Shown: piece after piece, positions 23,740-54,311 of the stretch
How positions within the stretch are numbered: the stretch's first letter is position 1
Layout of the letters: every line of letters begins with the position of its first letter
DNA from: Candidatus Eiseniibacteriota bacterium
GTDB taxonomy: Bacteria > Eisenbacteria > RBG-16-71-46 > CAIMUX01
NCBI GenBank assembly: GCA_016712505.1
Contig: JADJQY010000005.1
Location: forward strand, 249,258-313,257
Reading direction: 5' to 3'
Length of the DNA stretch: 64,000 nt
Translations under genes and position numbers: made by a program
The notes under the pieces: model-generated
The model's database searches: none
What the model saw: the letters and a program-made list of their open reading frames with translations, nothing else
Told to the model about the DNA's origin: nothing

Positions 23740-23915
23740 CCGCGTCCGCCCCTGGAGGGTACCGAGTTCGAGACAAACGATCGGACCGGAGGATTCCCCC
23801 GGTCCGATTCGCCGTTCGGCCTGTTGACCGCCCGGCAGGATGTGCCCCTGCCCGTCAGGCCCTATGAACCTGCCCGTCAGGCCGGATGAACCTGCCGCCC
23901 CCGGAGGGGCCGAGT

Positions 23916-26012: not shown

Positions 26013-26222
26013 CGTTTCTTCTCCTGTTCTCGCCACCCACCGGCCACGATCGAGATGAAGCGCCGGTTGTGTAGATGGCTTCTCGGCGCACCTGCGCCGC
26101 CTACTTGTGGACCTCTACAAACGGATGAGGATCGAGGCGCGGCCGGACTCCGGGCCGCGCTCGTTCGGGGGAGAGATGCCGGGCTGGGAGCGAATGCCGA
26201 TCCGCGGCATCCCGAAGACGTG

Positions 26223-26320
26223 TCCCAACGGACGTATCCCTACGGACGTGTCCCTACGGACGTGTCCCAACCGACGTGTGCCAGCAGACGCGTTACAGCA
26301 GACACGTTCCAGCCGGGTGT
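26223..26320. repeat. tandem array A: about 7 x 14 bp (TCCCTACGGACGTG consensus), decaying at the 3' end, in the pnp leader
   Basis: Direct reading: tcccaacggacgta / tccctacggacgtg / tccctacggacgtg / tcccaaccgacgtg / tgccagcagacgcg / ttacagcagacacg / ttccagccgggtgt. Confidence 0.85.
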
Positions 26321-26385
26321 TATCGAGCGGGCTGGTGCGTAGGCGTTCCGGCCTCTTCCTCAAGCGCCCACCCGCCGTCTGGTGC

Positions 26386-26491
26386 CCTGCCGACTGGCAG
26401 CCCTGCCGTCCGGTAACCTGCCGTCCGGTAACCTGCCGTCTGGTAACCTGGCGTCCGGTAACCTAGCGTCCGGCAGCCTGCCAGGTTCCAG
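26386..26491. repeat. tandem array B: about 7 x 15 bp (CCTGCCGTCCGGTAA), inverted relative to array A
   Basis: cctgccgactggcag / cctgccgtccggtaa x2 / cctgccgtctggtaa / cctggcgtccggtaa / cctagcgtccggcag / cctgccaggttccag. The reverse complement TTACCGGACGGCAGG resembles the array A/G core TACCGACGG. Confidence 0.85.
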
Positions 26492-27228: not shown

Positions 27229-28200
27229 TCAACGGATTCCTTCGATCGGCGGCAGGACGGGATCTCCGATTTTCGGCACCTTGCCCTGGAGTCGGAGGCG
27301 AGCCTCCTCGATGTCCCGGGCCACCGCCTCCTTCAGTGCCGGAAGCCCGTCGAATCGAATTTCCGCTCGAATTCGCGCTTCGAAATAGACCGGCAGAACT
27401 TTCCCCCTCAGATCGCCGCTCCAGTCGATCAAGTGGACTTCCACGGTATCGGCAGCATCATCTGTCAACGTTGGGCGACGTCCGACATTGATCGCCGACG
27501 GCACCACACCCCCCGCGATCTCGGACCAACCGGCCTAGACACCGCGGGCGGGCAGGCAGGTTCCCTCCGGAAAAACGAGATTGGCTGTCGGGACGAGCAG
27601 CTTGCCTCCCTCCCCCCGACCGAACCCCACCCGCCCCTCGAGCAGATAGGTCCGCCCCAGGACGCGGCTCGCCTCCTCCACCGCGCCACGGCGCAGCGCC
27701 TCCCGAACACGGGAGGAAGACCACGCGCACCCCGCATCGAGAACGGGCGGGAAAACCTCCGCCGTGAAATCCCGCTCGCGCCCGAGTTCACGCAGCAGAT
27801 CGATCGTTCCTTCGCGACGGTTCCCGAAGCGAAAATCCGCTCCCACCCAGAGCTCGCGCAGGTCGAGACGCGCCAGGAGCACGTCAAGGAAGGCGCGCGG
27901 CGAGAGTGCGGCCATGGCGGGGGAGAACGGGAGCAGCCAGGCGTGCGTGAAGCCGAGTTCGGCCAGGGCCCGCAGCTTTTGCTCCCGGCTGGCCAATCGG
28001 TGGACCGGAACACCGCGGGCCAGGATCTCGATCGGGTGGGGATGAAAGCTGATCGCCACTGGAGTGGCCTCGAGGGCGGCAGCGCGCATCAACACGGACT
28101 CGAGCAAGGCGCGGTGGCCGCGATGAACGCCGTCGAACACCCCGATGGTGGCAATCGCCGGGCCGGAGATGAACGGTTCGGAGGAACGAGGATCGAGCAC
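27229..28200 (-). pseudogene. ribF: bifunctional riboflavin kinase / FAD synthetase interrupted by an in-frame TAG (27535-27537)
   Basis: Two same-frame ORFs (27535..28200 and 27229..27507). Read through, the sequence is ...PARGV*AGWSEIAGGVVPSAINVGRRPTL..., where * aligns with the conserved Tyr of the riboflavin-kinase PxxGVY motif. Confidence 0.6.
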
Positions 28201-28336
28201 GGGCCGGTACCGCTCTGGATCGCCGACTAGATGACGCGTTCGAGTTCGAGGCAGAGAGACGCGTCGATCGGCCGATCAGCCGGACCCGGCAGGAGGTCCC
28301 ATCGCGCGATCGCCAACAGATCACCCGCCGGACCGA

Positions 28337-29179
28337 TCAACCGCACCCGTTGACCCGGCCGCGGGTTGCCTCGATGTGGAGCGCGTTCCGCGGAGGGACT
28401 CCGCCCTGCCGCAGCCGGCGGATCCAGGCATGGTCCACCTTGATGCCCTGCAAATGGGAGAGCGCGCGATTCATGTCGACGGCCTGCGAAAGCAACCCGT
28501 CACGAGTGCTCCCCGGGGGCGAGATGAGCCGACAGGCGTCGGCGATCTCGAATGGACCGACGTGGGTGCGGGAGAGAGTCTCGATCATCCCCACCGTGCC
28601 GACCGCCTTGGCCAGGTCCTCGGCCAGCGTCCGAATGTAGGTTCCCTTCCCGCACTCGACTTCGAAATCGACCCGCGGCAGCTCCACCTTGGTGATGGTG
28701 AAGCGGCCAATCTCCACGCGTCGCGCCTTGCGTTCCACCTCCACGCCCTTGCGCGCCAGGTCGTAGAGTCGCTGCCCGTCGATCTTGACGGCCGAGACCA
28801 TCGGAGGAATCTGCTCGATCGCTCCGATGAAGCGATCGGCCGCCGCCTGAAGCGCACCCTGATCGAGAGCCGGCACGGCCCGCTCTTCCACCACCTGTCC
28901 CCCGAGATCACCGGAGTCGGTGCGCCGCCCGAGCCTGAGCGTGCCGCGGTACCCCTTCCCGAGGTCGACCAGATGGGTGAGCAGCTTCGTGGCGCGCCCG
29001 ACGCAGACGATGAGCACGCCGTTGGCGAAGGGATCGAGACTTCCTCCGTGACCGACCTGACGGATGCCGAGGATACGACGAACCCGCGAGACCGCGTCGT
29101 GGCTGGTCCAGGGGATCTCCTTGTAGACATTGAGCACCAGGCCGGATGATTCGAGCGCGAGATCGGGATTACTCATCAT
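28337..29179 (-). CDS. truB: tRNA pseudouridine(55) synthase
   Basis: GHGGSLDPFANGVLIVCVGRATKL (catalytic Asp motif). Confidence 0.9.
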   Translation of the reverse strand: MMSNPDLALESSGLVLNVYKEIPWTSHDAVSRVRRILGIRQVGHGGSLDPFANGVLIVCVGRATKLLTHLVDLGKGYRGTLRLGRRTDSGDLGGQVVEERAVPALDQGALQAAADRFIGAIEQIPPMVSAVKIDGQRLYDLARKGVEVERKARRVEIGRFTITKVELPRVDFEVECGKGTYIRTLAEDLAKAVGTVGMIETLSRTHVGPFEIADACRLISPPGSTRDGLLSQAVDMNRALSHLQGIKVDHAWIRRLRQGGVPPRNALHIEATRGRVNGCG

Positions 29180-29552: not shown

Positions 29553-29942
29553 TCAACTTTCCCGGTCGTCGACGTCCTCGTACCCTTCCAGCGTCCAGTC
29601 GTCGGAATCGCCGTCCGCACCGCGGGGGTCGGACGACGCCGACTCTTCCACGTCGTCGATGTGCCGCACCAACGACCGGACATCGGTGACCACCACCCGC
29701 GGGTCACTCTCGATCTCCTGACGGATGGCCAGGAGGGAGGCGCGACCGCTCGATTCGGAGAGAACGACCAGGGCGAACCCCAGCGCGGCGCGCTGCAGGA
29801 GATCCTGATGATCGACCTCCGCCACGGAGGCGTGATAGCGGGCGCGGAGGTGTTCCTTGAGATGCCGAACCACGGCGCGCTTCGCCTTCAGCGAGCCGCT
29901 GTCGCGGATGATCAACTCGACTCGAGCGACGGCGTAGAACAT
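29553..29942 (-). CDS. DUF503 (YlxP-like) protein
   Basis: MFYAVARVELIIRDSGSLKAKRAVV. Conserved position between infB and rbfA. Confidence 0.7.
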   Translation of the reverse strand: MFYAVARVELIIRDSGSLKAKRAVVRHLKEHLRARYHASVAEVDHQDLLQRAALGFALVVLSESSGRASLLAIRQEIESDPRVVVTDVRSLVRHIDDVEESASSDPRGADGDSDDWTLEGYEDVDDRES

Positions 29943-29981
29943 GGATTTTCGTGCGGCGGGCACCGATGGCGCCCGCCTGGT

Positions 29982-32858
29982 CTACTCGAGTTTGCGCGCC
30001 ACCTCTTCGACGGTGTACGCCTCGATGACGTCACCTTCCTTCATGTCGTCGTAGCCGTCGAGGCCGATGCCGCACTCGAAGCCGGTCTGCACCTCGCGCG
30101 CGTCGTCCTTGACCCGCTTGAGCGAGGCGAACTTGCCGTCCCAGACCACGTCTACCCCACGGTAGACCCGGGCCCGGTCGTTGCGGCTGATCGAGCCGGA
30201 GACCACGAAACAGCCGGCGATCGCCCCCACCTTGGTGATGTGGAACACCTTTCGCACCTCGGCCGAGCCCTTGATCGTCTCGACCTTCTCCGGCGCGAGC
30301 AACCCGGCCATCGCGTCCTTGATGTCCTTCTCCACCTCGTAGATCACGCGATAGAGACGGATGTCGACCTTCTCGGTCATCGAGAGCTGGTGCGCCTTGG
30401 CATCCGCACGGGTGTGGAATCCGATGATGATTCCGCCCGAGGCCTTGGCCAGGAGGACGTCGCCTTCGGAGATCAGGCCCACCCCGGAGTGGATGATCCG
30501 CACCTTCACCTCGCTGGTCGACAGCTTGGTCAAGGTGTCGCGCAGCACTTCCACCGAGCCGGCCACGTCGGCCTTGAGCACGACGTTCAGTTCCTTCAGA
30601 TCGCCTTGCTTGATCCGCTCCTGGATCGACATGAGCGAGGTTGACTGCGTCTGGAGTCGGATCTTGTGCTCCCGCGCGATCTGCGCGCGGTAGACCGCGA
30701 TCTCCCGCGCCTTGGCTTCGTCCTTCATCACCGTGAGGACGTCGCCGGCCTGCGGAACGTCGTTCCAGCCGAGCAATTCCACTGGCGTCGACGGTCCCGC
30801 GACGGTGAGGCGCTGGCCCCGTTCGTCGTTCATGGCCCGCACACGACCCGACTGTCCACCGCAGACATAGGCATCGCCTACCCGGAGGGTGCCGTTCTGT
30901 ACCAGCAACGTCGCCACCACCCCGCGCCCGGAATCGCGCTTCGATTCGATCACGACTCCGCGAGCCGGGCGTTCCGGCTCGGCCTTCAGTTCGAGCAACT
31001 CGGCTTCGAGCAGCAGCCGTTCGAGCAGCGCTTCGACGTTCTGGCCGTGCTTGGCCGAGATCTCGACCGCACCGACCTTGCCGCCCCACTCCTCGATGAG
31101 CACGCCGTTGTCCGCCAGCTCCTTCTTGATCCGCTCCGGGTTGGCATTGGCCAGATCGATCTTGTTGATCGCCACCACGATCGGCACGTTGGCCGCCTTC
31201 GCGTGGTTGATCGCCTCCAGGGTCTGAGGCCGAACCCGGTCGTCCGCCGCGACCACCAGGACCACGATGTCGGTGACCTGGGCACCCCGGGCGCGCATCG
31301 CCGTGAACGCCTCGTGTCCCGGCGTGTCGAGGAACGCGACGTTGCCCTGTGGCAGCCGCACCTGATACGCACCGATGTGCTGGGTGATGCCGCCGGATTC
31401 CGTCTCGATCACCTTGGTCTTCCGCACGTAGTCGAGCAGGCTGGTCTTGCCATGGTCGACATGGCCCATCACGGTGACGATCGGGGCGCGCGGCTTCTTG
31501 TCCCAGACCTCGTCGCTCTCCTCCTCCTGGGCCAGCATCTCCTCGCCGAACTCGGTCTGGAAGTCCGGCTCGAAGCCGAACTCGTCCATGATCGTGGCGA
31601 TCGCATCCTTGTCCAGTCGGTAGTTGATCGTGGCCATGATGCCGAGCTGGAAGCAGGTGGCGATCACCTCGTTCGGCTTCGCCTCCATCATCGAAGCGAG
31701 CTCCGCCACGGTGACGAACTCGTGGACCTTCAGCGTGCGGCTGACCTCCTCGACCCCCACTTCATCCGAACGGCGGCGGCGTCGCGAACCGCGCGAGCGC
31801 CCGGCATCGATGTTCGCCATGGTCCGCCGAACGTTGTCCCGAACCGCGGCCTGGTCAACCGTCCGCTTGCCGCGCTTCTTGTTTGCTCCGCCGCGATTGC
31901 CGAAGAGCGGAGCCCGTGGCGCCCCAGCCGAAGGCGGATTGAGCACCGGCGCGTTACCGCGCTGTGGCGGACCTCCCGGTCGCCCGGGGGGACCGGATTG
32001 CGGGCGGTAGCCAGGACCACCGGGACGACCCTGATCACCGGGACGACCCTGATCGCCGGGCCGACCCTGATCGCCAAGCCGACCCTGGTCCCCCGGTCGC
32101 GGCGGGTCTCCAGGGCGGTACTGGCCGGCCGGAGGCCGACCGCCGGGCGCACCGCCGCGATTGGGCGGACCACCTGGCCCGGGTCGTCCGCCACCCTGGG
32201 GCGAACCGGTCGCGCGGGCAGGGTACCCCCCGGTCGTGGCCGGGCCGCGATTCCCACCGGACGCGCCCTGCGGCGGGCCTCCCGCCGGGGAAGACGAGCG
32301 CGGCTGCGTCGGGCGCTGGGTGTAGTCGGGATACGGACCGCCGTGCGGCTGGTATCCCGCGGTCGGCGCATTCGGATTCGTCGGTCGCGGCGGAGCGACC
32401 GGGCCGGTCGTTCCGCTGCCCCCCTGGGGAGGGGTCGAAGACGAGCTCGCCCCCGCGTCGCCCACACCACCGGCGCCGCCGCTGCCTGGCCCCACGCCGG
32501 CGGAGCCGGATCCGGCTGAACCCGCGCCAATCGCTCCCGGTGCGGACACTCCGGCGGTCGGAGCCACGGTGCCCGGGGCGGAGGGAAACGAGGCCGGCGC
32601 CTGCCCCGCGGGGGGCGTCACCTGGCGAGCCTCCTCCACCTTGCGATTGATCTCGTGGTGAAGGGCTGCCTTCTTCTCCGTCTCGCTCTTGGTCTTCGCC
32701 CTCTCTTCGCTGATCTGGGCGCGGATCTTGGTGACGAGGTCGTCGTCGATCGCGCTCATGTGGCTTTTCACATCGTCACCGAGTTTGGTGATGATGCTGA
32801 CCAGAGCATCGCTGGAGATCTTCAGTTCACGAGCGAGCTGGAAGACGCGTGTCTTCAC
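29982..32858 (-). CDS. infB: translation initiation factor IF-2
   Basis: GTP-binding domain [16 protein letters not shown]...DTPGHEAF...NKID. Long Gly/Pro-rich N-terminal region encoded by 18-bp DNA repeats around 32021-32092. Confidence 0.95.
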
Positions 32859-34474
32859 GCATTCGCCTCACTTTCGTCGTTCTCGGCCGGTGTTGCCTGC
32901 GCGCGTCCCGTATCCGGGTCGGCTCCGCCGGCGTCTTCACGGGCGCCGGAGTCGCTCATCGCGGGAGTGTCGAGGGAATTCCCTTCCGCCTGCACGCCCC
33001 TGTCGTCCGAATCGGTGCTGTCGTCCGAATCGGTGCTGTCGTCCGAATCGGTCCTGTCGCCCGAATCAGTCCTGTCACCCGAATCAGTCCTGTCCGTTTC
33101 GTCGCTTTCGGTTTCCGAGTCGTTCCGGGCCGCGGGATCGTCAGCCGTAGCTTCCTCGCCGACCTCGCCGACCTCGATTTCGGCCCCATCCACATCGGCA
33201 TCCGCCAGGTCGCCGGAAGCGCCCCCGGCGCGCCGTTCGAGAATCTCCCCGCCGAGCGTGAGCAGACGGGTGGCGGTCTTCTCGCCGATCCCCGGGATCG
33301 CCATCAGTTCCTCGACGGACGTGCGCATCACGTCCTGGAGCGTTTCCTTCCCCGCCTTGATCAGCTTTTCCACGGTGCGCGCGCCCAGATCCTTCTCGAG
33401 CTCCTCGAGCTCGATCTCGGCCGCCTCGCCCGAAGCCGCCTGCATCTGCGACTGGCTCTTCAGGTCGATCGCGTAGCCGGTGAGCTTGCTCGCCAGGCGT
33501 GCGTTCTGTCCGCGGGTACCGATCGCGACCGAGAGGCCCTCGTCCGCCACGACCACGGTGGCGCGACGCTCCAGCTCGTTCGGAATGACGTCGAGTACAC
33601 GCGCGGGTGACAAGGCGCGAGAGAGAAACAGCTTCGGATCCGGGCTCCAGGGCACGATGTCGATCCGCTCTCCCCCGAGTTCGCGGACGATGGCCTGCAC
33701 GCGCGCCCCCTTCATTCCGACGCAGGCGCCGACCGGATCGACGCGGTCGTCATGGGAGACGACCGAGATCTTGGTGCGGGATCCGGGCTCGCGGGCGATG
33801 TCCTTGATCTCGACCACGCGCTCGAAGATCTCCGGAACCTCGTTCTCGAAGAGTCGACGCACGAAGTCGGGGTGCGTCCGGGAGAGGATGAGCTGTGGCC
33901 CCTTCTGGTTCTTGTCGACGTCGAGCAACAGAGCGCGGACCGGCTCACCGATCTTGAACCGGTCGCGGAAGATCACCTCCCGGGGCGGAATCATCCCCTC
34001 GGTCTTCCCCAGCTTTACGATCACGCTCCCTCGATCCACCTGGGAGACCGCGCCGCTCAAGATCTGCCCCTTGCGCTCGATGAACTCCTGGAAGACGTTC
34101 TCCCGTTCCGCCTCACGAACCCGCTGGACCAGCACCTGCTTTGCGGTCTGGATGGCGTTACGCCCAAACTCGGCCACCGGCACGTCCACCGGTACCGTCG
34201 TGCCGAGGCGGACGCCGGGATGGGACTTCACCGCCTCCTCGTAGTCGATCTCTCCGGCCAGATCGATCGCGACCTGCACCACCTTCTTGTGCACGCGGAC
34301 ACGGATCTCGCCCGAAATCTCATCGAAGGCGACCTCCACGTCTGCCGCGGTGGCATAGCGCTTCTTTGCCGCGCTGAGCAGCCCGACGGTGAGCGTCTCC
34401 ACCAAGAGGCGCCGATCGACGCTCTTCTCGCGGGAGATCTGCTTCAGTGCTTCGAGAATTTCCTCAGTAGCCAT
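32855..34474 (-). CDS. nusA: transcription termination/antitermination factor NusA
   Basis: MATEEILEALKQISREKSVDRRLL, S1 domain, two KH domains and an acidic C-terminal tail encoded by an 18-bp tandem repeat (33002-33091, (DSTDSD)n). Confidence 0.9.
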   Translation of the reverse strand: MATEEILEALKQISREKSVDRRLLVETLTVGLLSAAKKRYATAADVEVAFDEISGEIRVRVHKKVVQVAIDLAGEIDYEEAVKSHPGVRLGTTVPVDVPVAEFGRNAIQTAKQVLVQRVREAERENVFQEFIERKGQILSGAVSQVDRGSVIVKLGKTEGMIPPREVIFRDRFKIGEPVRALLLDVDKNQKGPQLILSRTHPDFVRRLFENEVPEIFERVVEIKDIAREPGSRTKISVVSHDDRVDPVGACVGMKGARVQAIVRELGGERIDIVPWSPDPKLFLSRALSPARVLDVIPNELERRATVVVADEGLSVAIGTRGQNARLASKLTGYAIDLKSQSQMQAASGEAAEIELEELEKDLGARTVEKLIKAGKETLQDVMRTSVEELMAIPGIGEKTATRLLTLGGEILERRAGGASGDLADADVDGAEIEVGEVGEEATADDPAARNDSETESDETDRTDSGDRTDSGDRTDSDDSTDSDDSTDSDDRGVQAEGNSLDTPAMSDSGAREDAGGADPDTGRAQATPAENDESEANA

Positions 34475-34626: not shown

Positions 34627-34712
34627 CCCAAAGAACCCCAGCCCAGCCCTGGCCGAAGAACCCCTGGCCGAAGAACCCCTGGCCGAAGAACCCCTGCCCG
34701 AAGAACCCCTGC
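34627..34712. repeat. tandem array C: 4-5 x 15 bp (GCCGAAGAACCCCTG) in the rimP-nusA spacer
   Basis: gccgaagaacccctg x3, then cccgaagaacccctg, then a degenerate unit. A partial copy precedes the array. Confidence 0.85.
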
Positions 34713-35674: not shown

Positions 35675-36592
35675 CTAGGGGGCGGCGAGTTCCCCCCCGT
35701 AGATCAGGTCGAGCACGACCGTCCCGACCCGCTCGAGGGTAGTCGAACTGAGCCGGTCCGGAGTGTCCTTGAGGGTGTGCCAGTTTGGATCACCCCAGCC
35801 GATGATGAGCGCGGAGGGCACCCCGCGGCGGAGCCAGGGCAGGTGATCGTCGGTAATGGCGTAGCCGACTGCCGGGTTGAACTCCGCGAAGCCGCGGCGG
35901 GCCGCCAGATCGAAGATCAGATCGGAGAGATCCGGGAAATACCGCTGCGAGTAGAGCTCGCGACCGAATTGCGCCCCCGGGGCGCCGATCATGTCCAGTA
36001 CCAGCACCCAATCGGGGAGACGACCGACCCATTCGGAGGCCAGGCGCTGGCTCCCCAGGCAGAACTCCTCGGGCTTGTCGTCCCGCCCCAGATCCTCCGC
36101 GTCGAAAAGCACCAGATCGACCCCGATCGGCGGGGGGTTGTCGCGCAGAACTCGCGCCAGGGTGAGGAGCAGCGCCGTACTCGACGCCCCGTCGTTCGCC
36201 CCCAGGACCGCCTTCGCGCGCGCCTGGGGATTCGGATCCTGGTCCGCCCAGGGGCGGGAGTCCCAGTGCGAACCGAGGAGCAGCCGCGGCCGGGCCTCGG
36301 GGCGAATCGAGATGATCAGATTGGTGCAGGCGAGCTCCCGACCATCAGCGGGCGAGATCACCTTGAAGGGGTGGGCGCGATAGGCGACGCCAAGGGAATC
36401 GAGGTGAGAACGAAAGGCCGAGAGGCAACGGGCATGCGCCGGCGTGCCCGGCACCCGGGGACCGAAGGCGCACTGTCGCCGCACCCACTTCATGGCGCTC
36501 TCCCCGGAGAGAGCCGGAGCCGCGGCCTCGACCGGGTCGGCCGACAGGAGCAGCGCCCCGAGCGCCAGCAATCGCCCGACGCCCCCCCGCAT
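35675..36592 (-). CDS. M28 family zinc peptidase (secreted aminopeptidase / glutaminyl-cyclase-like)
   Basis: Signal peptide, then LLGSHWDSRPWADQDP, GANDGASSTALLLTLA and LFDAEDLG metal-ligand motifs. Confidence 0.7.
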   Translation of the reverse strand: MRGGVGRLLALGALLLSADPVEAAAPALSGESAMKWVRRQCAFGPRVPGTPAHARCLSAFRSHLDSLGVAYRAHPFKVISPADGRELACTNLIISIRPEARPRLLLGSHWDSRPWADQDPNPQARAKAVLGANDGASSTALLLTLARVLRDNPPPIGVDLVLFDAEDLGRDDKPEEFCLGSQRLASEWVGRLPDWVLVLDMIGAPGAQFGRELYSQRYFPDLSDLIFDLAARRGFAEFNPAVGYAITDDHLPWLRRGVPSALIIGWGDPNWHTLKDTPDRLSSTTLERVGTVVLDLIYGGELAAP

Positions 36593-39500
36593 CAGAAGGT
36601 GAAGGCGGCCGAGACGGAGATGCTGACCAGGCGTGTCGTGTTCCCCTCGTTCTTGTTGTCGGTGTTCTGCCCCACGCTCAGCGATGCCTTCCCGTTGATG
36701 TTGTCGGTGAACTGATAGTTGGCGTCGGTGGTGACCTTCAGACTGGAACGATCATCCCCGATCACGTCCTGCCCCGCCCCGAAGCGCGAGGTGGTCGATT
36801 TGTTCTGCGACCAGTCGATCGCCCCTGAGAGGTCGAGACGGGTTTGCACCACCTTTTTCTGGTTCGTGACCGGCACCACCACCGTCTTGGTCAAGCGGAT
36901 CGTCTTCTTGACCGTGAGCAGAACCTTGCGCGAGATCGACTCGTTCAGGTTCCCCGGTGGCGGATTGTAGCTCTGGGTGCGGGTGACCCGCGAGTCGCTG
37001 CTCAAGGAGGCGGTCATCTCGTTGTTCAGCGTCAGGTTCAGGTTCAGCAGGGGCGAAAACGCGGTGCTCCTCTGCTCCGTGTCCCGGGTACGCCCCTGGG
37101 AAGCGGTCGTCTGGAGCTCTCGCGAGAAGTTGGTCGTCGCCTGGATGCTCTTTACCCGCGACTCCAGGCCGAGGACCTTGACCAGCGCCTTTGGCGCCGT
37201 GCCCCAGTTCACGTTGAGATCGGGCCACTTCGTGGTGACCCGCGTCGTCGGCTGCTGCGCGTTCTGCCGTTGGTTCGATTCGGTCCGGTTTGCGCTCGTC
37301 CCCACGCTCACATTCTGCGGCATCCGGAGCGAGGTGGTCAGGGTGAAGGTCTTCCCTTCGCTCTCGGTCGACTGGGCCAGCCCTACCGGGCGAGTGTCTC
37401 CGCCCGGGTTGTCACTCAGCCCGAGCTGATAGAGCATCGAGGGAGTGCCGCGCTGGCTGCTGCGACTATTGTCGTGGGTGAGCGAGTACTGCAGCTGCAT
37501 CGGTTCGAGTTTGAACCCGCGCGGGCCGGAGCCGGCCGACGAGTTTCCCGACTTCTCTCCCTTCCCCCCCCGACCCAGTTTCGCCAGCTCGCCCAACGCG
37601 AGGCGAGCGGAGAAGCTGGTCGAGTTCCCCGAGCGGAACGAGTTGGTCCGCTCCTGGCGGTCCTGCTGCAGGTTGGTGTACTGCAGGAAGTCGATCCCCG
37701 AGCGCCCGCTCCAGGTGACCTTGGGCGCCACCGAGGTCTTCAAGATCGGGATGTCGTAGTTGGTGCTCAGATCCTGTTGTCGCGCGGTCTCACGACCGAG
37801 GTTCAGCCCGAGCAGGCGTGGGGCCCCTTCTCGGAGCTGCAGATCCCGGTTCGAGCTGATCCGGTAGTTCAAGAACTGCAACGGTCGCATCCCCGCTCCC
37901 AGGTTGAGCGCGGCGCTATTGCGGTTGGAGGTCGGGGCGAGGCGGAAGGGCGCGGCGAGGTCGCTACGGACGTAGCGACGGCTCCGGTTCCGCTGCCCAT
38001 TCAGGGTGGCGCTGACCGAGTTGGGCAGCAACTGCGCCCGCCACCCCTTGCCAAGGTTGAATGCGGCAAGGTTGTCCAGCGCCATTGCCCAGGAGACGCC
38101 CCCGGTGGCATTGGTCGTGGTGTCGCGCTGGGTTGGGGTGAGCGAGGTCGCCTTTCGATGCGAGCCGTTCAGCCTGAACGGGGCCAGGCCGTAGCGCACC
38201 CATGGGTTCTCCGATGACTCCTTCTCGATGCTGACCTCGAGCCGTCGCTCGTTGGTCTCGCTGATGTCGCGATCGGTGGCTCGATCGAGCACCAGGTCGC
38301 TGTTGGTCTGGAACTTCGGGACGCGACGGTCCCGCGCGGCCGACCAGCGGACCGGCAGGCGGATCCCGAGCGGCGAGAGGAATCGATCGACATTGACGGT
38401 GCTGGCCAGGTTCACCGCCGTGGTGGTGGTCCCGGAGCCGCGCTCCTTTCCGATCGAGAGGAAGTCGGCGTTGGTCCGGGTGAGGTTGCCGCTGAAGCTG
38501 GCCACGTCCGAGAGATTGGTCTGGACGCTCATGCGCGTGGCGTACCCCCGGTCCTTCTTGACCTGGGTGAGGCGCAGCTCGTTGATCCAGACGTTGCCCC
38601 GCCCGAGAGTCGACTGGCCCCGGTTCGCGACGAAGAAAGCGATCCGCTGGATGCTGGTCAGGCTCGGATTCCCCTTTCGCGAGATGACCGCACCGTTGGG
38701 CAGGCTCCGACTGGCGATCTTGGTCACGGAGTCCGGCACGTCGAGCTGCAGCTGGGACATCTCTGCGAAGTCCATCCGAACCAGGTACCAGTCGCTCAAG
38801 ATCGGAATCCGGTACTCGTAGTAGTTGGTGGTGTTGCTGTTGGCATCGCGACAGAGCCGGATGGTCGCCTGGAGATTCGCGTCCCCCAGTTCCGACCGTT
38901 TGCGCAGGTAGAACTCCATGTTCTCGTAGAGCGTGTAGTCCTGCCGGGTGGGATAGGTGCGGTAGATCGACGCCTTGTGCGCCGGGGCGAAGTTCGACAG
39001 CTCGAGGGTGATCGACTGCTCGCGCTCGGTCACGTTGTTCTGTTTCCCCGGCTTGAACGGTGGATCGTAGACCGCGGCATCGTCCTTGTTGTTCAGCACG
39101 CTGACGAAGAAGTCCTCCCCCGGGCCGATCTGCTCCGGCGGGAGCGGCCGGTCGGCCAGGTTGGCCAGCGGCCCCTCGTACCAGCGGTTGCCGATGATCT
39201 CCAGCCCGCCGATCTGGAGCAGGGTCGAGTCGGCCAAGCTGTCGACCCAGACCCGGGCGTGGAGGATCTTCTCCCAGCTCGGCTCGATTCCGGGTCGGCT
39301 TTCGATCCGCACCAGGGAGTCACTGTCGAGCGGGATGCGGACCCGGCGCCAGCCGTTGTCCGATCGGATGGCGAAGTTGAGATCGTTCCGTCCTTCGTAG
39401 TCGCGGAAGACGTCGGTTTCCCAGAGCGTGGAGTCGCCGAGATCGATCGACACGGTGAAGTAGCTGCTCAGGGTGGAAAGTGAGCTGTCGTCGTTCAGGT

Positions 39501-39840
39501 CCTCGCTGTCCATCTCCTGATTGCCTTCGGTGCCGTTGACCTGAGCGTACTTGCGCGGACTGGTCTCGCTCACGTCGTCATCGAACTTGTAGTCGTCGCG
39601 CGGATCGTCGCCCGATCGACCTGATTGGATCCGGTCGAGGCCCACGTCCTCGTCTCCCTGGGTTCCCTGGTCGAGGCGGCCGTCGTTGTTCTGATCCTCG
39701 GTGTCGAGCTTGCCGTTCGGAGTGACGATCGTTCGCTCGCTCGGTGGTCGGCGGAGATCATTGGGATCACCGCGGTACCAGATGGCGTCCTCGTTCACCG
39801 AGCCAAGGTCGATGTGGAGGCGGCCGCGCCGCTTCGCCAC
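36592..39840 (-). CDS. SprA-like giant cell-surface / outer-membrane protein, C-terminal fragment (frame 0)
   Basis: 1082-aa ORF rich in Asn/Thr/Ser beta-strand-like repeats, ending in ...SISVSAAFTF (beta-barrel C-terminal Phe). Contiguous with two upstream frames. Confidence 0.5.
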   Translation of the reverse strand: MAKRRGRLHIDLGSVNEDAIWYRGDPNDLRRPPSERTIVTPNGKLDTEDQNNDGRLDQGTQGDEDVGLDRIQSGRSGDDPRDDYKFDDDVSETSPRKYAQVNGTEGNQEMDSEDLNDDSSLSTLSSYFTVSIDLGDSTLWETDVFRDYEGRNDLNFAIRSDNGWRRVRIPLDSDSLVRIESRPGIEPSWEKILHARVWVDSLADSTLLQIGGLEIIGNRWYEGPLANLADRPLPPEQIGPGEDFFVSVLNNKDDAAVYDPPFKPGKQNNVTEREQSITLELSNFAPAHKASIYRTYPTRQDYTLYENMEFYLRKRSELGDANLQATIRLCRDANSNTTNYYEYRIPILSDWYLVRMDFAEMSQLQLDVPDSVTKIASRSLPNGAVISRKGNPSLTSIQRIAFFVANRGQSTLGRGNVWINELRLTQVKKDRGYATRMSVQTNLSDVASFSGNLTRTNADFLSIGKERGSGTTTTAVNLASTVNVDRFLSPLGIRLPVRWSAARDRRVPKFQTNSDLVLDRATDRDISETNERRLEVSIEKESSENPWVRYGLAPFRLNGSHRKATSLTPTQRDTTTNATGGVSWAMALDNLAAFNLGKGWRAQLLPNSVSATLNGQRNRSRRYVRSDLAAPFRLAPTSNRNSAALNLGAGMRPLQFLNYRISSNRDLQLREGAPRLLGLNLGRETARQQDLSTNYDIPILKTSVAPKVTWSGRSGIDFLQYTNLQQDRQERTNSFRSGNSTSFSARLALGELAKLGRGGKGEKSGNSSAGSGPRGFKLEPMQLQYSLTHDNSRSSQRGTPSMLYQLGLSDNPGGDTRPVGLAQSTESEGKTFTLTTSLRMPQNVSVGTSANRTESNQRQNAQQPTTRVTTKWPDLNVNWGTAPKALVKVLGLESRVKSIQATTNFSRELQTTASQGRTRDTEQRSTAFSPLLNLNLTLNNEMTASLSSDSRVTRTQSYNPPPGNLNESISRKVLLTVKKTIRLTKTVVVPVTNQKKVVQTRLDLSGAIDWSQNKSTTSRFGAGQDVIGDDRSSLKVTTDANYQFTDNINGKASLSVGQNTDNKNEGNTTRLVSISVSAAFTF

Positions 39841-42590
39841 CCCTGGCGCCAGGCGTCGAAGCGCACGAAGTCGTTGATCCAGATGTCGAGGAACTGGGCC
39901 CGCGACAGATCCGCCCCGCGGGTGGAGATCGACTGCACCACCCCGGACCAGGAACGCTCCCGCTCCCCATCCGTCTCCCCCGCCGGGAACACCTTCATCT
40001 CGAGCACCGTGCGATTGTCATCCCCTTCGGTCTGCTCGAGGGTCGGCTGCAGGTCCCCCTCCCGCACCTTGGCCCGAGGGGAGTACCAGTAGAGTTCCCC
40101 TTTGCGCACGGAGGCCTCCTGCTCGCCCAGATCGTCGAGCAGCGGGGCGGGAATCGAGGCCGGTCGCCAGGCGCGGCGGTTGAGGTTGAGCGACTGAATG
40201 TCCTTCACCCCGTCGAAGTCGTCGACGTACAGCTTGTCCCGGGTGTTCGGATTGGGAAACGACATGCCGAGACCGGCGTCGAGGTCGAAGCGGGACGGTG
40301 CGCGAGCCGTGACCCCGGGCAGGGCGTTGGCCAGTCGGGTCAGCATCCAGGCTTCGGTCTTGTACGAACCGGTGAACTCACCGACCAAGGTGTGGGCCGG
40401 CTCCTCCCCCAGGCGCGGTCGTTTTCCCTGCAGACCGGGCACTCCCCCCTTGCTCTCGTAAAGCCAGGCGGAGGAGAAGTTGAGCTTGCTGTCCTGCGGC
40501 CGGTAGGCTCCGGCCATCCCCGCGAGCGTCTTCTGATTTCCCCCTCCGAACGGGATGAATGAATAGGTGACCTGGATGTTCTCGCTCTGCTGCACGTTCG
40601 CGGCAGCCAGGATCTCGATCTCCCCGAGGTCGTAGTCGATGGTGTAGTCGCGGTCGCGCACCAACAGTCGCCCGCCGGCCCGCACCGACTCGCTCCCCTC
40701 GAGGATGTTGTAGGCATTGAGCTGGATGTTGCTCACCGGACTCCGGTAGGTGACCTCGATGTAGTACTGGCTGTCTCCGGGCTGCGGCGTACCCGACCAG
40801 TCGTAGACCCGCGGGGCGCGGAGGGCGGGGTCGATCGGGATGGTGTTCTCCGCGGTGCGTTGCTTGAGGGAGGTGCCGTCCGGACGGAAGCGGTAGAAGA
40901 GAAACTGGCCGCAGGTCGCGGGCTCGAGTCCAAGGTCGGCCGAGTCGGGATCGAACGGCCGGAGGTCGGGGAAGTAGAGCAGTCCGCTGCCCAGATCGAC
41001 CTGCCCGGGGTCGACCTCCTCGTCGGTTCCGGCCGTCGTCTGCCCCTCGGAGTTCAGGATGCCGAGGTCGAGCCCGGTCCGCTGGAGAAACGTGACGTTC
41101 GAGATCTGGTCCGGCTCGTTGTCGGTGCCCAGGGTCCGCTTCAGCCGGACGCGAAGCTGGAGCGAGCCGGCTTCGATCGATCGAGCCTGCAGGTCGTAGA
41201 CATTCTTGAGCTCGAGGTTCCGGACCGAGGCCCACGGACCCTCGGTCAGGTCGTTGCTCACATTGAGCGCGCTACCCGGACGGATCATCTTCAGGCTCAG
41301 CGTGTCGCCACTGGCGATGAACCCCACCCGCTCGATCGGTGTGGTGGTGCGCACCAGGTTTCCCGTCCCGTCCACCCCCATGGCCACGCCGCGGTAAGCC
41401 ACGGCCAGGACGTCGTCCTCGTCGAGCGGACGACTGAGCACCAGCCAGGGATTGCCCCGGTTGCGGTCGCGATTGATGACGTAGTCCTCGTCGACCCCCA
41501 TCTTGAGCAGGTGGAAGTTCCCCACTGCCACCGAGTCGACATCGGTGCCCACCGGCGGGCGAGGATCGCGACCGGTCACCGTCACCTTGCTCGCCCGGGC
41601 GTCGAGCTGGACGTCGTTGTTGCGCACCTTGTCGTCCACGAAGACGTAGAGCGAGTCATCGTCCACGTCCCACGGGCAGCCGTTCGGGTCGCGCAGGAAG
41701 AAGAACTTGCCCCGGATGAAGTCGGTGTCGTCGATCCGGATGGTGGTCACCTCGGCCGATCGTTCGATCGACTTCGAGTCGTTCTTTCCCTCCTGTTTGG
41801 AGAGAATCATGTTCACGTCGACCGCGGCCAGCTTGGCCAGCGCGCTGATGCCGAAGAGACCCTCGGCGCGGCCGTTGTAGGTCACGTACTGCGTTCCCGG
41901 GAGCGAGAGGTTGGTGTTCCCGAGGTTCACCTCCTGCACGATCTCGTCCTCGTAGCCGTCGTACTTGATCTTGATCCGGTTGGAGAGCGGCGTCGTGGCC
42001 TGACTCGCTTGATCGACGTCGACCTGCACCTTGTCGCCGATCGTACCGGTGAGGTTGAGGTTCAGTTCCTGCATCATGTCGAGCTGGGGGAACTTCGATT
42101 GCCCGCGACCGAACTCGGTCTCCCGCGCATTCGGACGCCACTGGCTGGTCCCGCCGAAGGTGATCCGCTCGCTGCCGCGCACCAGGAGGTTCGGCTCCCC
42201 CTTGCCGAAGATCGACTGGAGCTGGGACGGGACCTCGAAGGGGACGGTCAGCTTCACCATCCCCTTGTTCCCCTTGGCCACGTTGGCCCGCCCCTTCTCC
42301 GCGGTCTTCAGCTGGGTCAACCACTCCCGGCGGAAGTTCCGCAGCCCGAGGCGACGGAGGTACTCGGCGCGGGTCAGGCGCAGCCGCGGTCCAATCGGAG
42401 TCTGGCGATGCAGCTGCTGCACCTCGACCAGGGGGAATCGAGCTGGGCCGAGACCTGGAGCTGCAACGGATCGAAGGCATCGAGATGCGGTTCGGTCGCC
42501 TGGAGGAAGCGGAAGCCGAGGCTGTCGAGTCGCGCCTGTTCCGCCGGCTTCAAGAACCCCCGCGCGCGCACCGTCTCGCGAGCCGACCAC
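39795..42590 (-). CDS. SprA-like giant protein, middle fragment (different frame)
   Basis: 931-aa ORF (TFGGTSQWRPNARETEFGRGQSKFPQLDMMQELNLNLTG...). Overlaps the downstream fragment by 46 nt at a CCCC run. Confidence 0.5.
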   Translation of the reverse strand: MVGSRDGARAGVLEAGGTGATRQPRLPLPPGDRTASRCLRSVAAPGLGPARFPLVEVQQLHRQTPIGPRLRLTRAEYLRRLGLRNFRREWLTQLKTAEKGRANVAKGNKGMVKLTVPFEVPSQLQSIFGKGEPNLLVRGSERITFGGTSQWRPNARETEFGRGQSKFPQLDMMQELNLNLTGTIGDKVQVDVDQASQATTPLSNRIKIKYDGYEDEIVQEVNLGNTNLSLPGTQYVTYNGRAEGLFGISALAKLAAVDVNMILSKQEGKNDSKSIERSAEVTTIRIDDTDFIRGKFFFLRDPNGCPWDVDDDSLYVFVDDKVRNNDVQLDARASKVTVTGRDPRPPVGTDVDSVAVGNFHLLKMGVDEDYVINRDRNRGNPWLVLSRPLDEDDVLAVAYRGVAMGVDGTGNLVRTTTPIERVGFIASGDTLSLKMIRPGSALNVSNDLTEGPWASVRNLELKNVYDLQARSIEAGSLQLRVRLKRTLGTDNEPDQISNVTFLQRTGLDLGILNSEGQTTAGTDEEVDPGQVDLGSGLLYFPDLRPFDPDSADLGLEPATCGQFLFYRFRPDGTSLKQRTAENTIPIDPALRAPRVYDWSGTPQPGDSQYYIEVTYRSPVSNIQLNAYNILEGSESVRAGGRLLVRDRDYTIDYDLGEIEILAAANVQQSENIQVTYSFIPFGGGNQKTLAGMAGAYRPQDSKLNFSSAWLYESKGGVPGLQGKRPRLGEEPAHTLVGEFTGSYKTEAWMLTRLANALPGVTARAPSRFDLDAGLGMSFPNPNTRDKLYVDDFDGVKDIQSLNLNRRAWRPASIPAPLLDDLGEQEASVRKGELYWYSPRAKVREGDLQPTLEQTEGDDNRTVLEMKVFPAGETDGERERSWSGVVQSISTRGADLSRAQFLDIWINDFVRFDAWRQGWRSGAAASTSTLAR

Positions 42591-43198
42591 CGATTGACCA
42601 CGCTGTGGAGCAGGGCATCTTCGCTCGGGAACATCGAGACCGGACGGGTCCAGAGACCGACGCCGGGGGGAATCTCGATTTCACGGCTCGGCATCGGGCG
42701 CGCCTCGACCGGAGTGCCGGTGAGTTCGGGCGGCGGGGTCGAGAAGGGATCCACCGGCGGGGGTGGGGTGGCGCGGCCCTCCCCTTCGGCGGCGGCCGAG
42801 TCGACGAGCGCGCTGCCCCGGGCGGAGTCAGGGAGGGCGGTCAGGGACGAATCGCCCAGAACCGCGCTCGAGTCCAAGCCCGCCGCCTGGAGCACCTCCT
42901 GCAGGCTCGAATCGGGCCGTTCCGGGGTCGGTTCGAGGCTGTCTCCCGCCTCCCGTTGTGCGGCCACAGAGGGCAAGCTCGCCCCCGAATCCAGGACATC
43001 CGCGGGAGCATTGCCGATAGTCGAGTCGACGGGCGGGGGCAAGGGACGCGGCCGCGGGGTGGCGTTGACCGGATCCTCGATCGCTCCGGGCGCCCCGGCC
43101 TGGGACCGGGGACCGAAGAGGATCAAGGTCAGGGCAACAAGCAGCACCCATCCTACCGCCGGTCGGCGGGAGCCAGGCTCGATCTGTGCTGTAGGACG
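42374..43198 (-). CDS. SprA-like giant protein, N-terminal fragment with signal peptide (third frame)
   Basis: Candidate TTG start near 43198, then RRPAVGWVLLVALTLILFGPRSQAGA (signal peptide). The frame switches to the middle fragment near a GGGGG run around 42432-42436. Confidence 0.4.
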   Translation of the reverse strand, partial: RPTAQIEPGSRRPAVGWVLLVALTLILFGPRSQAGAPGAIEDPVNATPRPRPLPPPVDSTIGNAPADVLDSGASLPSVAAQREAGDSLEPTPERPDSSLQEVLQAAGLDSSAVLGDSSLTALPDSARGSALVDSAAAEGEGRATPPPPVDPFSTPPPELTGTPVEARPMPSREIEIPPGVGLWTRPVSMFPSEDALLHSVVNRWSARETVRARGFLKPAEQARLDSLGFRFLQATEPHLDAFDPLQLQVSAQLDSPWSRCSSCIARLRLDRGCA

Positions 43199-43285
43199 AA
43201 GGTGGATCAATCCGTGGCCCCGGACCCCGTCTGGCGATCGTTCTGATGTCCCGGAAGCTCGTGTTCCGGGGGCGTGCGGCCCAAA

Positions 43286-43360
43286 CTCTCCCGGTCCGGG
43301 CTCTCCCGGTCCGGGCTCTCCCGGCCCGGGCCCTCCCGGTCCAAACCCTCGTGGTCGGGA
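43286..43360. repeat. tandem array D: about 5 x 15 bp (CTCTCCCGGTCCGGG) in the sprA/lptF divergent spacer
   Basis: ctctcccggtccggg x2 / ctctcccggcccggg / ccctcccggtccaaa / ccctcgtggtcggga. Confidence 0.85.
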
Positions 43361-43597
43361 CCGATCTGGGCCGTGGAGCCGGCCCGCGAGCTGGGACGAT
43401 ATGGACCCGGCAAGTCGGTTCGCGTCATTCGGCTGGACCCGCCGGAAGGGCCGCAGGGTAGACCAGAATCTGCCGGTCGGCGATGGCGTGATCGACTCGT
43501 CGTCGGAACAGGCTCCGGCGCATATACTCCGCGCCCGGGCCGAGGTTTCGGTCCGGCTCGTTTCCAATCCGAATCAGGGAGGCGTTCGCGACACCGG

Positions 43598-44971
43598 ATG
43601 ATCTTGCAGCGCTACATCGTCCGATCACTGGTCGGGCCCTTTCTGCTCGGATTCGGGATCGTGACGTTTCTCCTCACGATGGACATGCTGCTCGATCTCC
43701 TCGATCTCATCATCGGGAAGGGCATTCCGGTCTGGACCGTCGTGCGCCTGTTCTTCCTGGCCCTGGGCTGGATGGTCGCCCTCTCCGTCCCCTGCGGCGT
43801 CCTCGTGGCCGTCCTCATGACCTTTGGCCGGATGAGCCAGGACAACGAGATCGTCGCCCTCCGGGCGAGCGGCGTCCACCTCTTCCGGATCCTGGCCCCC
43901 GCGCTGGGCACGTCCGCGATTGTCGCCATCGCCCTCGCCCTCTTCAACAACTACGTCCTGCCGGAATCGAACTATGCCTTCTCCCGCCTCCGGGACGAGA
44001 TGATGCGAAAGCGACCGACGGCGGAGATCCGCGAGGGGGTCCTCATGGACGACTTTCGCGGCTACCACCTCTTCATCAGCCGTCTGAACGACCGGACCGG
44101 GGAGATGCAGGACGTCTTGATTCTCGACGGCACCTCCTCCCCCACCTCCCCGCGCACCATCCTGGCCAAGAACGGGATCCTGCACTTCCGTCCGGAGGAG
44201 AACGCACTGACCCTCGAACTGTTCGACGGCCAGATCCACCAGGCCGATCCGAACGCCGCCGAGGGGACCTACCGATGGCTCGACTTCGGCACGCACATCC
44301 TCCGGATCCAGGAGGTGGGAGATCTCTGGCGCGAGGGAGTGCAGAAGCGACGGGGCCAGCGGGAGATGTCGGTCGAGGAGATGAAGGCCGAGATCCGGAA
44401 GCTCCAGGCGGATCGCGACAACACCATGAAGTACATCACCGGCGACCTGGAGAAACTCTCCCTGCCCGACCTCGAAACGCTCGACCTGCGTGACCCGGGT
44501 TCGGCGGTCCAGGGGGCGGTGGGAAGCCTCTGGCGAAAGGCACTCAAGCAGGCGAGGCCGCCCGCGCCGAGCAACTTCTCGGTGGACGAGCAACGGGTGG
44601 TGGAGGCGATCCGCTCGCGCCAGGGAGAGGTTCGCTCGGTGGAACGCCGGATCAGCGAGTTCCGGGTCGAGATCCACAAGAAGTTCTCCATCCCGGTGGC
44701 CTGTGTGGTCTTCGTGCTGGTGGGAGCGCCGCTCGGGATCCGCGCCCGCCGGGGCGGACTGGCGGTCGGCTTCCTGAGTTCCGCCTTCTTCGTCTTCTAC
44801 TGGCTCTGCCTGATCGGGGGCGAGCAGCTCGCCGATCGTCGGCTCCTCCCTCCCTGGGTTGCCATGTGGCTGGCCAACGTCGTCCTGGGGACCCTCGGAA
44901 TCTTCCTCACGCTGTCGGTCATCCGCTCCGGCGACCCCGGGCGGCCGCGACCGCAAAAGGCCGCGCCGTGA
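43598..44971 (+). CDS. lptF: LPS export ABC transporter permease (YjgP/YjgQ family)
   Basis: MILQRYIVRSLVGPFLLGFGIVTFLL, 6 transmembrane segments with a large periplasmic insert. ATG at 43598. Confidence 0.75.
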   Translation: MILQRYIVRSLVGPFLLGFGIVTFLLTMDMLLDLLDLIIGKGIPVWTVVRLFFLALGWMVALSVPCGVLVAVLMTFGRMSQDNEIVALRASGVHLFRILAPALGTSAIVAIALALFNNYVLPESNYAFSRLRDEMMRKRPTAEIREGVLMDDFRGYHLFISRLNDRTGEMQDVLILDGTSSPTSPRTILAKNGILHFRPEENALTLELFDGQIHQADPNAAEGTYRWLDFGTHILRIQEVGDLWREGVQKRRGQREMSVEEMKAEIRKLQADRDNTMKYITGDLEKLSLPDLETLDLRDPGSAVQGAVGSLWRKALKQARPPAPSNFSVDEQRVVEAIRSRQGEVRSVERRISEFRVEIHKKFSIPVACVVFVLVGAPLGIRARRGGLAVGFLSSAFFVFYWLCLIGGEQLADRRLLPPWVAMWLANVVLGTLGIFLTLSVIRSGDPGRPRPQKAAP

Positions 44972-44999
44972 CGCTTGGCAGGGGAGAAACGAAGGGACG

Positions 45000-46079
45000 A
45001 TGAGGATCCTCGATCGCTACCTGGTGCGGGAGTACCTCAACTACTGCTTCCTCGGCATCCTCACCTTCGTCGGCCTGTTCATCGTGGTCGACCTGTTCGA
45101 GAAGCTGGATGTCTTCGTCGACCACAAGGCGGGGGCCGGGCTGGTCGCGCGTTACTACCTCTACGGGGCGGGGACGATCGTCACCCAGGTGCTCCCGATC
45201 GCGCTTCTGCTCGGTTCCATCCTGAGCCTCAGCCAGCTCCGGAAATACAACGAACTGGCCGCGATGCAAGGCTCGGGACAAAGCCCGTGGCGCCTCGCCC
45301 GCCCTCTGCTCCTCGCCGGACTCGCCTTCTCCATCGGGCAGTACGCGCTCAATGAGGGGCTGGGACCCAGGATGTACGAAGGGCAGAAGCGGATCCTGAA
45401 CGAGGAGATCAAGCGTCTCTCGGGCACTGACTCACAGAGCCGTTCCGACGTGCGGTTCGTCGGGGCCGGCGGTCGCTTCTTCATCGCGCAGTTTTTCGAT
45501 GCCCGGCGCGAGACCTTGCGCGGCGTCTCGGTCCAGTACCTCGCTCCCCCCCGTCTCACCGCGCGGATCGACGCCGAACGCGCCAGCTGGGTCGACGGCA
45601 CCTGGCGGTTCGAGAATGGGCACCTCAGGAGTTTCTCCGACGCCGGTTCACACTCGATCCCGTTTCGGGCCTACGCCAGTTCGGAGATCGACGAGACCCC
45701 GCGCGACTTCGCCCGGCAGAGCGTCGACCCCTTCCACCTGGGCATGCGGGATCTGTGGCGCTACGCCGAACGGATCCGCGGCTCCGGCGGCGAGACGCAG
45801 AAGTACCTGACCAACTTCCATCTGCGCGCGTCGTTCCCCCTGGCGGGGCTGATCATGACGCTCCTGGGCGCGGCGCTCTCGCTCCGCGTGGTGCGAGGGG
45901 GCAACATCGCCGTCGGCCTGGGGCTCTCGGTGTCGGTCGGCTTCGCCTTCTTCGCCTTCGTGCGCATCGGTCAGGCGCTGGGATACAACGGCACGATCCC
46001 GCCGATGCTCGCAGCCTGGCTCGGAAATCTGGTCTTCACCGCGATCGGGTTCTTGCTCTTCTGGAAAGTGAGCCGCTAG
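45000..46079 (+). CDS. lptG: LPS export ABC transporter permease (YjgP/YjgQ family)
   Basis: [37 protein letters not shown]. Confidence 0.75.
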
Positions 46080-47491
46080 CCGGCGGGCGGGGGCGGAGGA
46101 GATTCCGCGCCTCCGGGAGCACTCCCGGCCGGTGGGGTCGGCGGCGCCGCTTCGCTCCTCATCTCTTCCAGGAAGTGGGTGTCCACCCCGCCACGACGAA
46201 ACCCTGGATGGCGCAGCACCTCGGCCTGGAACTCCATCGTGGTGTCGATCCCCTCGATCCGGGATTCGTCCAGCGCCCGCAGCATCCGGTCGATCGCCTC
46301 CTCGCGCGTCGCGCCGTAGGCGATCAGCTTGGCGATCATTGAATCGTAGAACGGCGGAATCGAGTAGCCGGAGTAGATGTGGGTGTCGAGCCGGATCCCC
46401 GGCCCCCCGGCGAAGTGCAGGCTCTCGATCTTTCCCGGCGAGGGGCGGAAGTTCTGGCGGGGCGATTCCGCATTGATCCGGCACTCGATGGCGTGCCCGC
46501 GGGGAATCACTTCCTCCTGCCCGAAGGGGAGCGGCTCACCCGCGGCCAGACGGATCTGCAGCTTCACCAGGTCGAGGGAGAGAATCATCTCGGTCACCGG
46601 ATGCTCGACCTGCAGACGGGTGTTCATCTCCATGAAGTAGTACGAGCCGTCCGCGTCGTAGAGGAACTCCATCGTGCCCAGCCCGCGGTAGCCGATCTGC
46701 TTCGCCCCCCGGCAGGCCGCCTCCCCCATCTTCGTACGGATGACCGGATCGAGCCCGGGTCCGGGCGCCTCCTCGATCAGCTTCTGGTGCCGCCGCTGAA
46801 CCGAGCAGTCGCGCTCGCAGAGGTGGACCACGTTTCCGAAGATATCGGCCGCCAGCTGGATCTCGATATGGCGCGGCCGTTCGAGGAACTTCTCCAGGTA
46901 CATCGCATCGCTGCTGAAGGCGGCCATCGCCTCGGCCTGCGCCATCGGGAGCGCGCGCTCGAGTTCGGCCCCGCTGCGCACCACGCGCATCCCCTTGCCC
47001 CCGCCTCCGTCTCGCGCCTTCAAGATCACCGGGTAGCCGACCTGCTCGGCGATTTCCAGCGCGTGCGGGACCGACTCCAGAATCCCCTCACTCCCGGGCA
47101 GAGTGGGGACCTTCGCCGCCTTCATGGTCGACTTCGCGACGCTCTTGTCCCCCATCAGGCGGATCGCCTCCGGCGTCGGGCCGATGAAGGTGATTCCAGA
47201 CGACTCCACCGCTTCGGCGAACTGCGCCTTCTCGGAGAGAAACCCGTAGCCGGGATGGATGGCGTCAGCCTTGGTGATGTCGGCCGCGGCGAGCAGGCGC
47301 GGGATGGCGAGGTAGCTCTCCGCGCTCTTCGCCGGCCCGATGCAGACCGATTCGTCCGCGATCTTGACGTGCAGCGACTCGCGATCGGCTTCCGAGTAGA
47401 CCGCGACTGTCCGGACTCCGAGCTCCCGACAGGCGCGGATCACCCGCACCGCGATTTCCCCTCGATTGGCGATCAGTACTTTCTTGAACAT
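46076..47491 (-). CDS. accC: acetyl-CoA carboxylase biotin carboxylase subunit
   Basis: [28 protein letters not shown]-grasp domain, [14 protein letters not shown]. Confidence 0.95.
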
Positions 47492-47567
47492 GCCACCCCC
47501 CGCCCGTCATCCGGGCCGTCCGCGGCCGGCTTCCCGGGCCTCGCGCCTTGGCCGGGCGGGGTTTGGC

Positions 47568-48785: not shown

Positions 48786-48900
48786 GTCGCACCCTCGTCA
48801 TCCGGACAGTGTCCCCGGGGCGAAGCATCGCCTCGCTGCCGCACCTGCGGCGAACCGCTGTTCCGGAGGGGAGCACCCCCGTCCGCACCGGCGGCGAGGA

Positions 48901-49431
<531 letters not shown>

Positions 49432-49486
49432 GGGTGGTTTCCTTAAGCCCGGTCGGACCGGGGTAGTAGAACGTCATCGCCTCGCC

Positions 49487-49930: not shown

Positions 49931-50048
49931 CTACGCCTGCCCCCGCGCGGAGGCAGGCCGAGGCTCGGTGCGCCTGGCTCCCGAGGCAAGTCCGTGCTGA
50001 CCGTGCCTTGGATCGTGTTCATTCGGTTGGTCTATCACAATCCCAGGG

Positions 50049-51203: not shown

Positions 51204-51339
51204 CCCAGGAGGACGCCGCCCGACGAGCCGGCGGAAGCTAGCACGCGGCGGAGCTCGGGTCAAAAGTGGAAGCGGGCATCACCGCCCGCAGCCTGACGCA
51301 CGGGAGGTCGCGGGGAACGGGGGGCAGAGTGGCCGAGCC

Positions 51340-52584: not shown

Positions 52585-52672
52585 ACCTATGTGGCGGCCG
52601 GTCGGCCGCCGCGAGGGCCGGGGTCGCGTCGCAAGCGGCTCCGACAACCGGCACTCACCCCCCATCCGCACC

Positions 52673-54032: not shown

Positions 54033-54059
54033 CTTGATCACTCCTCATGGCGTCGCCCG

Positions 54060-54274: not shown

Positions 54275-54311
54275 GAACTCGGCCTCCCAGCAACCCGAAG
54301 CGAGGTGTTCG

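Follow-up and report, generated by a model that had tools for sequence, protein, structure and literature searches.

The riboflavin kinase/FAD synthetase gene ribF is broken in this 'Candidatus Eisenbacteria' assembly by a single in-frame TAG. The best explanation for this codon, at a probability of roughly 80%, is an uncorrected consensus error of the public assembly, a probably Nanopore-based metagenome-assembled genome (MAG) of low coverage. A consensus error is preferred because conspecific assemblies are normal at codon 222 and because several other gene-breaking defects are found nearby. On this explanation the true ribF would read TAT (Tyr) at codon 222 and would encode a normal bifunctional riboflavin kinase/FAD synthetase of 323 amino acids, with nothing recoded. 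The stretch of DNA analysed is 64,000 nucleotides long and is referred to as the window; the features discussed are collected in Table 1.

Table 1. Positions in the window of ribF, its domains and the other disrupted genes.
Feature	Position	Strand	Remarks
ribF (bifunctional FAD synthetase/riboflavin kinase)	27229-28200	minus	323 codons plus TGA stop, broken by one TAG
In-frame TAG of ribF, codon 222	27535-27537	minus	Plus-strand CTA; C at plus-strand 27535
FAD_syn domain of ribF (FMN adenylyltransferase; PF06574)	27712-28161	minus	Residues 14-163, upstream of the TAG
Flavokinase domain of ribF (PF01687)	27298-27660	minus	Residues 181-301, TAG inside
pilT (type IV pilus retraction ATPase)	47568-48785	minus	405 codons, otherwise intact; second in-frame TAG
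In-frame TAG of pilT, codon 68 (conserved Glu68)	48582-48584	minus	GAG in three conspecific assemblies
truB	28227-29179	minus	One base of a G/C homopolymer near 28362-28366 is missing in comparison with two conspecific assemblies
sprA-like gene (type IX secretion)	36592-43147	minus	Two single-base homopolymer deletions, one near 39844 and one near 42436

The gene is recognizable as a RibF, or type I FAD synthetase, as represented by TIGR00083 and by the Corynebacterium ammoniagenes enzyme (PDB 2X0K), with which it shares the FAD_syn plus Flavokinase layout and the PTAN and GVY motifs. It also stands in the usual RibF neighbourhood, nusA-infB-rbfA-truB-ribF-rpsO-pnp. When the frame is read through the stop both Pfam domains are complete, FAD_syn matching profile positions 7-157 of 158 (E 7.8e-38) and Flavokinase matching positions 1-121 of 124 across the TAG (E 1.5e-29). 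The read-through product scores 206.6 bits with the TIGR00083 ribF equivalog model, for which the curated cut-off is 184.35, and it retains the invariant residues T205, A206, N207, E254, R276 and R278. The TAG is the sole internal stop of the reading frame. It is flanked by the sequences LPARGV and AGWSEI and takes the place of the Tyr in GVY, a motif of riboflavin kinases. The Flavokinase domain is thereby broken about 40 residues in, leaving a 221-amino-acid product that does not contain the invariant E254, R276 and R278. Both domains are full-length around the stop, so the gene does not appear to have decayed, and two intact domains that flank one stop are not a chance arrangement of open reading frames.

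A sequence-only reading of this DNA had described an in-frame amber codon at a conserved tyrosine of ribF, one base away from a Tyr codon and not caused by an indel. Both parts of that description stand. Tyr occupies the TAG column in all 17 aligned RibF homologues (17/17) and also in the crystal structure of the C. ammoniagenes FAD synthetase, and the conspecific assemblies differ from the window by a single base at this codon. Plus-strand position 27535 is a C in the window and an A, giving TAT, in both the MAG GCA_020851285.1 and a Logan contig from SRR25822718 (L163).

The truncated 221-amino-acid product is identical to the NCBI protein MBK8231461.1 (locus tag IPK72_12930), encoded on a 359,497-bp contig of a 'Candidatus Eisenbacteria' MAG, and the TAG is therefore present in the deposited MAG. 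The 90%-identity cluster of this protein includes a full-length RibF of 323 amino acids from a second Eisenbacteria MAG (MCC7143139.1) and an ENA fragment (P0122), each with Tyr at codon 222. The second conspecific MAG, GCA_020851285.1, is collinear with the window on contig JADZDC010000176.1 and is 99.68-99.86% identical at the nucleotide level over 6655-38224 and 39489-59130 (approximately 51 kb). The ribF product of the window is 99.07% identical over its full length to the intact 323-amino-acid RibF of that MAG (L162), and the Logan contig from SRR25822718 is 99.8% identical to the window. The single uninterrupted frame that is typical of RibF is seen in these two assemblies and is lost in the window, which differs from the TIGR00083 family in having TAG at codon 222, in the present assembly alone. 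Codon 222 thus specifies Tyr in three conspecific assemblies, TAT being read directly in two and Tyr being given by the ENA fragment, although these assemblies are possibly not fully independent of each other since SRR25822718 is the source of several. The further implication of the sequence-only reading, that a true and perhaps suppressed amber codon lies in a normally essential gene, finds no support in this comparison. The closest other species (L001, 79% amino acid identity) likewise has TAT at codon 222, with identical flanks. The sequence downstream of the stop is conserved in the pairwise comparison with this species, which is not a means of dating a recent lesion.

The ribF stop is not a singular event in this assembly, as pilT also contains an in-frame TAG and frameshifts have arisen at three homopolymers. 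The pilT product matches Thermus thermophilus PilT over residues 6-350 (E 7e-113). Codon 68 is GAG (Glu) in GCA_020851285.1 and in two Logan contigs, in one of which (L178) the TAG/GAG change is the sole difference from the window in 1467 bp. The deletion in truB shifts the frame of the last 46 codons, and the TruB protein annotated by NCBI is 279 amino acids long here and 317 amino acids long in GCA_020851285.1. The sprA-like gene is spread over three overlapping open reading frames in different frames in the window, and is one gene of 2185 amino acids in GCA_020851285.1. The frame switches in truB and sprA were confirmed by tblastn with the intact proteins. In the intergenic region between pnp and the M16 peptidase gene (23748-23753) the window is also 2 bp shorter than GCA_020851285.1 in a C/G homopolymer. 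In total, five gene-inactivating lesions (ribF, pilT, truB and two in sprA) are found over the approximately 51 kb that are otherwise about 99.8% identical. A six-frame scan of the window, using GC3 and a codon score, revealed no in-frame stop beyond that of pilT, and the remaining same-frame junctions between open reading frames separate neighbouring genes of the usual kind, a start codon following directly on the stop.

The two TAG sites have no sequence or methylation motif in common, and the other substitutions unique to the window have no shared motif either. The tetranucleotides CCGG (ribF) and GATC (pilT), located one base past the changed position, were considered as a motif and rejected, as such 4-mers are too common in the genome.

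This set of lesions fits an under-polished, low-coverage Nanopore assembly. The lesions of ribF and pilT are absent from the other conspecific assemblies, as expected of artefacts, and further genes of this assembly are disrupted by homopolymer indels (28362, 39844, 42436). Consensus sequences from R9-era Nanopore data are known to retain frameshifting homopolymer indels, and bins below 40x require short-read polishing (PMC9262707). The MAG (IPK72) probably stems from the Nanopore project of Singleton et al. 2021. As far as the description of its pipeline goes, that project assembled activated-sludge MAGs from Nanopore reads with CANU, with polishing by Racon, by medaka 0.6.5 (two rounds) and by a single Racon round on Illumina data (PMC8012365). 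The entries for two Eisenbacteria MAGs in Supplementary Data 3 of the same paper give coverages of 8-10x for Illumina and 10-14x for Nanopore, and one of the two, JADJQY, is described with 42 contigs, a size of 6.45 Mb and a largest contig of 1.08 Mb (PMC8012365). The window resembles MAGs of this kind in the 1-bp G/C homopolymer deletions that frameshift truB and sprA (PMC9262707; pipeline PMC8012365), and in the length of its contig (359 kb), compared with short-read contigs that do not have the lesions. It departs from the typical R9-era pattern in that ribF and pilT are hit by transversions, a less typical class of error. Two points count against a consensus error at codon 222: the ribF lesion is a transversion, whereas Nanopore consensus errors are typically homopolymer indels, and an Illumina polish was part of the project's pipeline. 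A third is that the window is a genuinely distinct haplotype, which shares some alleles with other assemblies.

The substitutions between the window and its relatives bear on the question of whether errors or strain variation are being observed. The window differs from GCA_020851285.1 by 56 substitutions, many of them synonymous. Window alleles at 18119, 46660 and 49736 recur in other assemblies or samples, and real strain variation therefore exists. In the approximately 16 kb that are also covered by a third assembly, 9 substitutions are unique to the window and 3 to GCA_020851285.1. The coding changes unique to the window comprise 3 synonymous, 3 missense and 2 nonsense changes, and the substitutions comprise 4 transitions and 5 transversions. 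This composition looks near random, unlike that of selected polymorphism, on small numbers and in a post hoc comparison. The window-unique rate, about 5e-4 per base, leads to an expectation of approximately one nonsense codon per 50 kb by chance, with which the two observed are compatible. Within these limits the substitution indicators all point in the same direction, that of error. The base at 27535 may accordingly be taken, by inference from these comparisons, as an error rather than a true strain variant.

Several other differences between the MAGs are associated with tandem repeats. In-frame 18-nt tandem repeats are present within infB (32018-32087) and nusA (32999-33094), and inter-MAG single-nucleotide differences at 32010, 32055, 32061 and 33143-33145 cluster in or beside them. 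The last of these is codon 444 of nusA, where three adjacent substitutions give GCT (Ala) in the window and TTC (Phe) in GCA_020851285.1, which points to a multi-nucleotide polymorphism or else to a local fault of the consensus. The leader of pnp, in the gap between rpsO and pnp (26216-26482), contains two tandem arrays, one with about 5 copies of a 14-nt unit and one with about 7.5 copies of a 15-nt unit. The latter varies in copy number, as it has 15 nt less in GCA_020851285.1 and 30 nt less in a JGI contig. A further 15-nt tandem repeat of about 4.3 copies is found in the gap between rimP and nusA (34647-34711), where the window is 25 nt longer than GCA_020851285.1. Between infB and rbfA lies a DUF503 gene (29553-29981, minus strand), which is also present in related Logan contigs and is uncalled in the annotation of GCA_020851285.1.

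It is possible, though unlikely, that the TAG is a real nonsense mutation of recent origin, carried by the strain or sub-population that the MAG captured, which would make ribF a fresh pseudogene. Survival of the cell would then call for a second riboflavin kinase/FAD synthetase elsewhere or for low-level spontaneous readthrough, or else the allele would be a minor deleterious variant picked by the assembler. The distinct haplotype of the window, with its alleles common to other samples, is in keeping with such an allele, as is the survival of the substitution through the Illumina polishing step. Two more changes in ribF are specific to the window, V16I (28155) and V277I (27372); both are conservative, and none of the other conspecific assemblies has either. 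Of the three ribF differences none is synonymous and each is derived in the lineage of the window relative to the outgroup P0001, a pattern that would fit relaxed constraint. However, apart from the stop and the two Val-to-Ile changes the gene shows no clear decay and both domains are still full-length. A real allele would also delete the catalytic part of the kinase domain from the product of a gene that is normally essential. Furthermore, four other gene-breaking lesions are present in the same 51 kb, three of them classic homopolymer artefacts, and the truncated form occurs in no other assembly among the best 120 matches listed from a collection of 15 billion proteins.

Decoding of the TAG is far less probable. 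Here full-length RibF and PilT would both be restored, either by programmed readthrough or by an amber-suppressor tRNA, for example a tRNA-Tyr, chromosomal or mobile, whose anticodon is CUA. Both in-frame stops of the window are indeed TAG, and as with supF-type suppression (tRNA-Tyr, CUA anticodon) a TAG is found where Tyr is required, such that a Tyr-inserting suppressor would give back the native RibF residue and yield the wild-type protein. Against this, no tRNA gene, and hence no suppressor tRNA, is present within the 64-kb window, and the two TAGs stand for different residues, Tyr (TAT) in ribF and Glu (GAG) in pilT. The use of TAG as a genuine stop elsewhere, pointed out in the sequence-only reading, is borne out by galT, manC, wza, pnp, rpsO and infB, all of which terminate in TAG. 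Over 50 genes of the window the stops are TGA in 30, TAG in 18 and TAA in 2; TAG thus ends 36% of them, so efficient suppression would be costly. Judging by codon usage, one-step nonsense codons in a GC-rich genome would mostly be TAG in any case. Both TAGs are missing from the conspecific assemblies, despite an identity of about 99.8% over the rest of the sequence. Conservation of the in-frame stop in close relatives, as would be expected of recoding, is not observed, codon 222 being TAT in L162 and L163 and Tyr in P0122. Nor is there a stimulatory RNA structure after the stop: over the 106 nt that begin with the TAG, folding is no more stable than in shuffled sequences (minimum free energy -35.9 kcal/mol, mean of the shuffles -39.3, z = +0.98). 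The proposal that both TAGs (Tyr222 of ribF and Glu68 of pilT) are real and are tolerated through an amber-suppressor tRNA or through leaky UAG termination must be regarded as very improbable. If true, the organism would be an environmental bacterium that naturally suppresses amber codons and in which an essential gene depends on this suppression.

It is hardly credible that the gene is instead split into an FMN adenylyltransferase of 221 amino acids and a C-terminal fragment with a start of its own, since, even with a complete N-terminal FAD_syn domain in the truncated product and a GTG-initiated open reading frame downstream of the stop in the same frame (GTG at 27507, 92 amino acids), the break lies about 40 residues into Flavokinase and off any domain boundary, none of 967 homologue matches shows such a split, and the conspecifics have a single uninterrupted gene.

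The in-frame TAG of ribF is most probably an assembly artefact with no biology attached to it, and the outcome of the analysis is a warning on the consensus quality of this MAG. It would carry biological weight only if the TAG were real, since reliance of an essential flavin-cofactor gene on suppression of a stop codon would deserve notice. In practical terms the lesson is one of data quality. In the region compared, this public MAG contains approximately one gene-breaking lesion per 10 kb, and its lesions include both homopolymer frameshifts and stop-creating substitutions. What look like pseudogenes, 'split' genes or in-frame stops in this MAG should not be interpreted without the reads. The truncated RibF is annotated by NCBI as a 221-amino-acid 'hypothetical protein', and so metabolic reconstructions based on this MAG could wrongly score FMN/FAD synthesis as absent.
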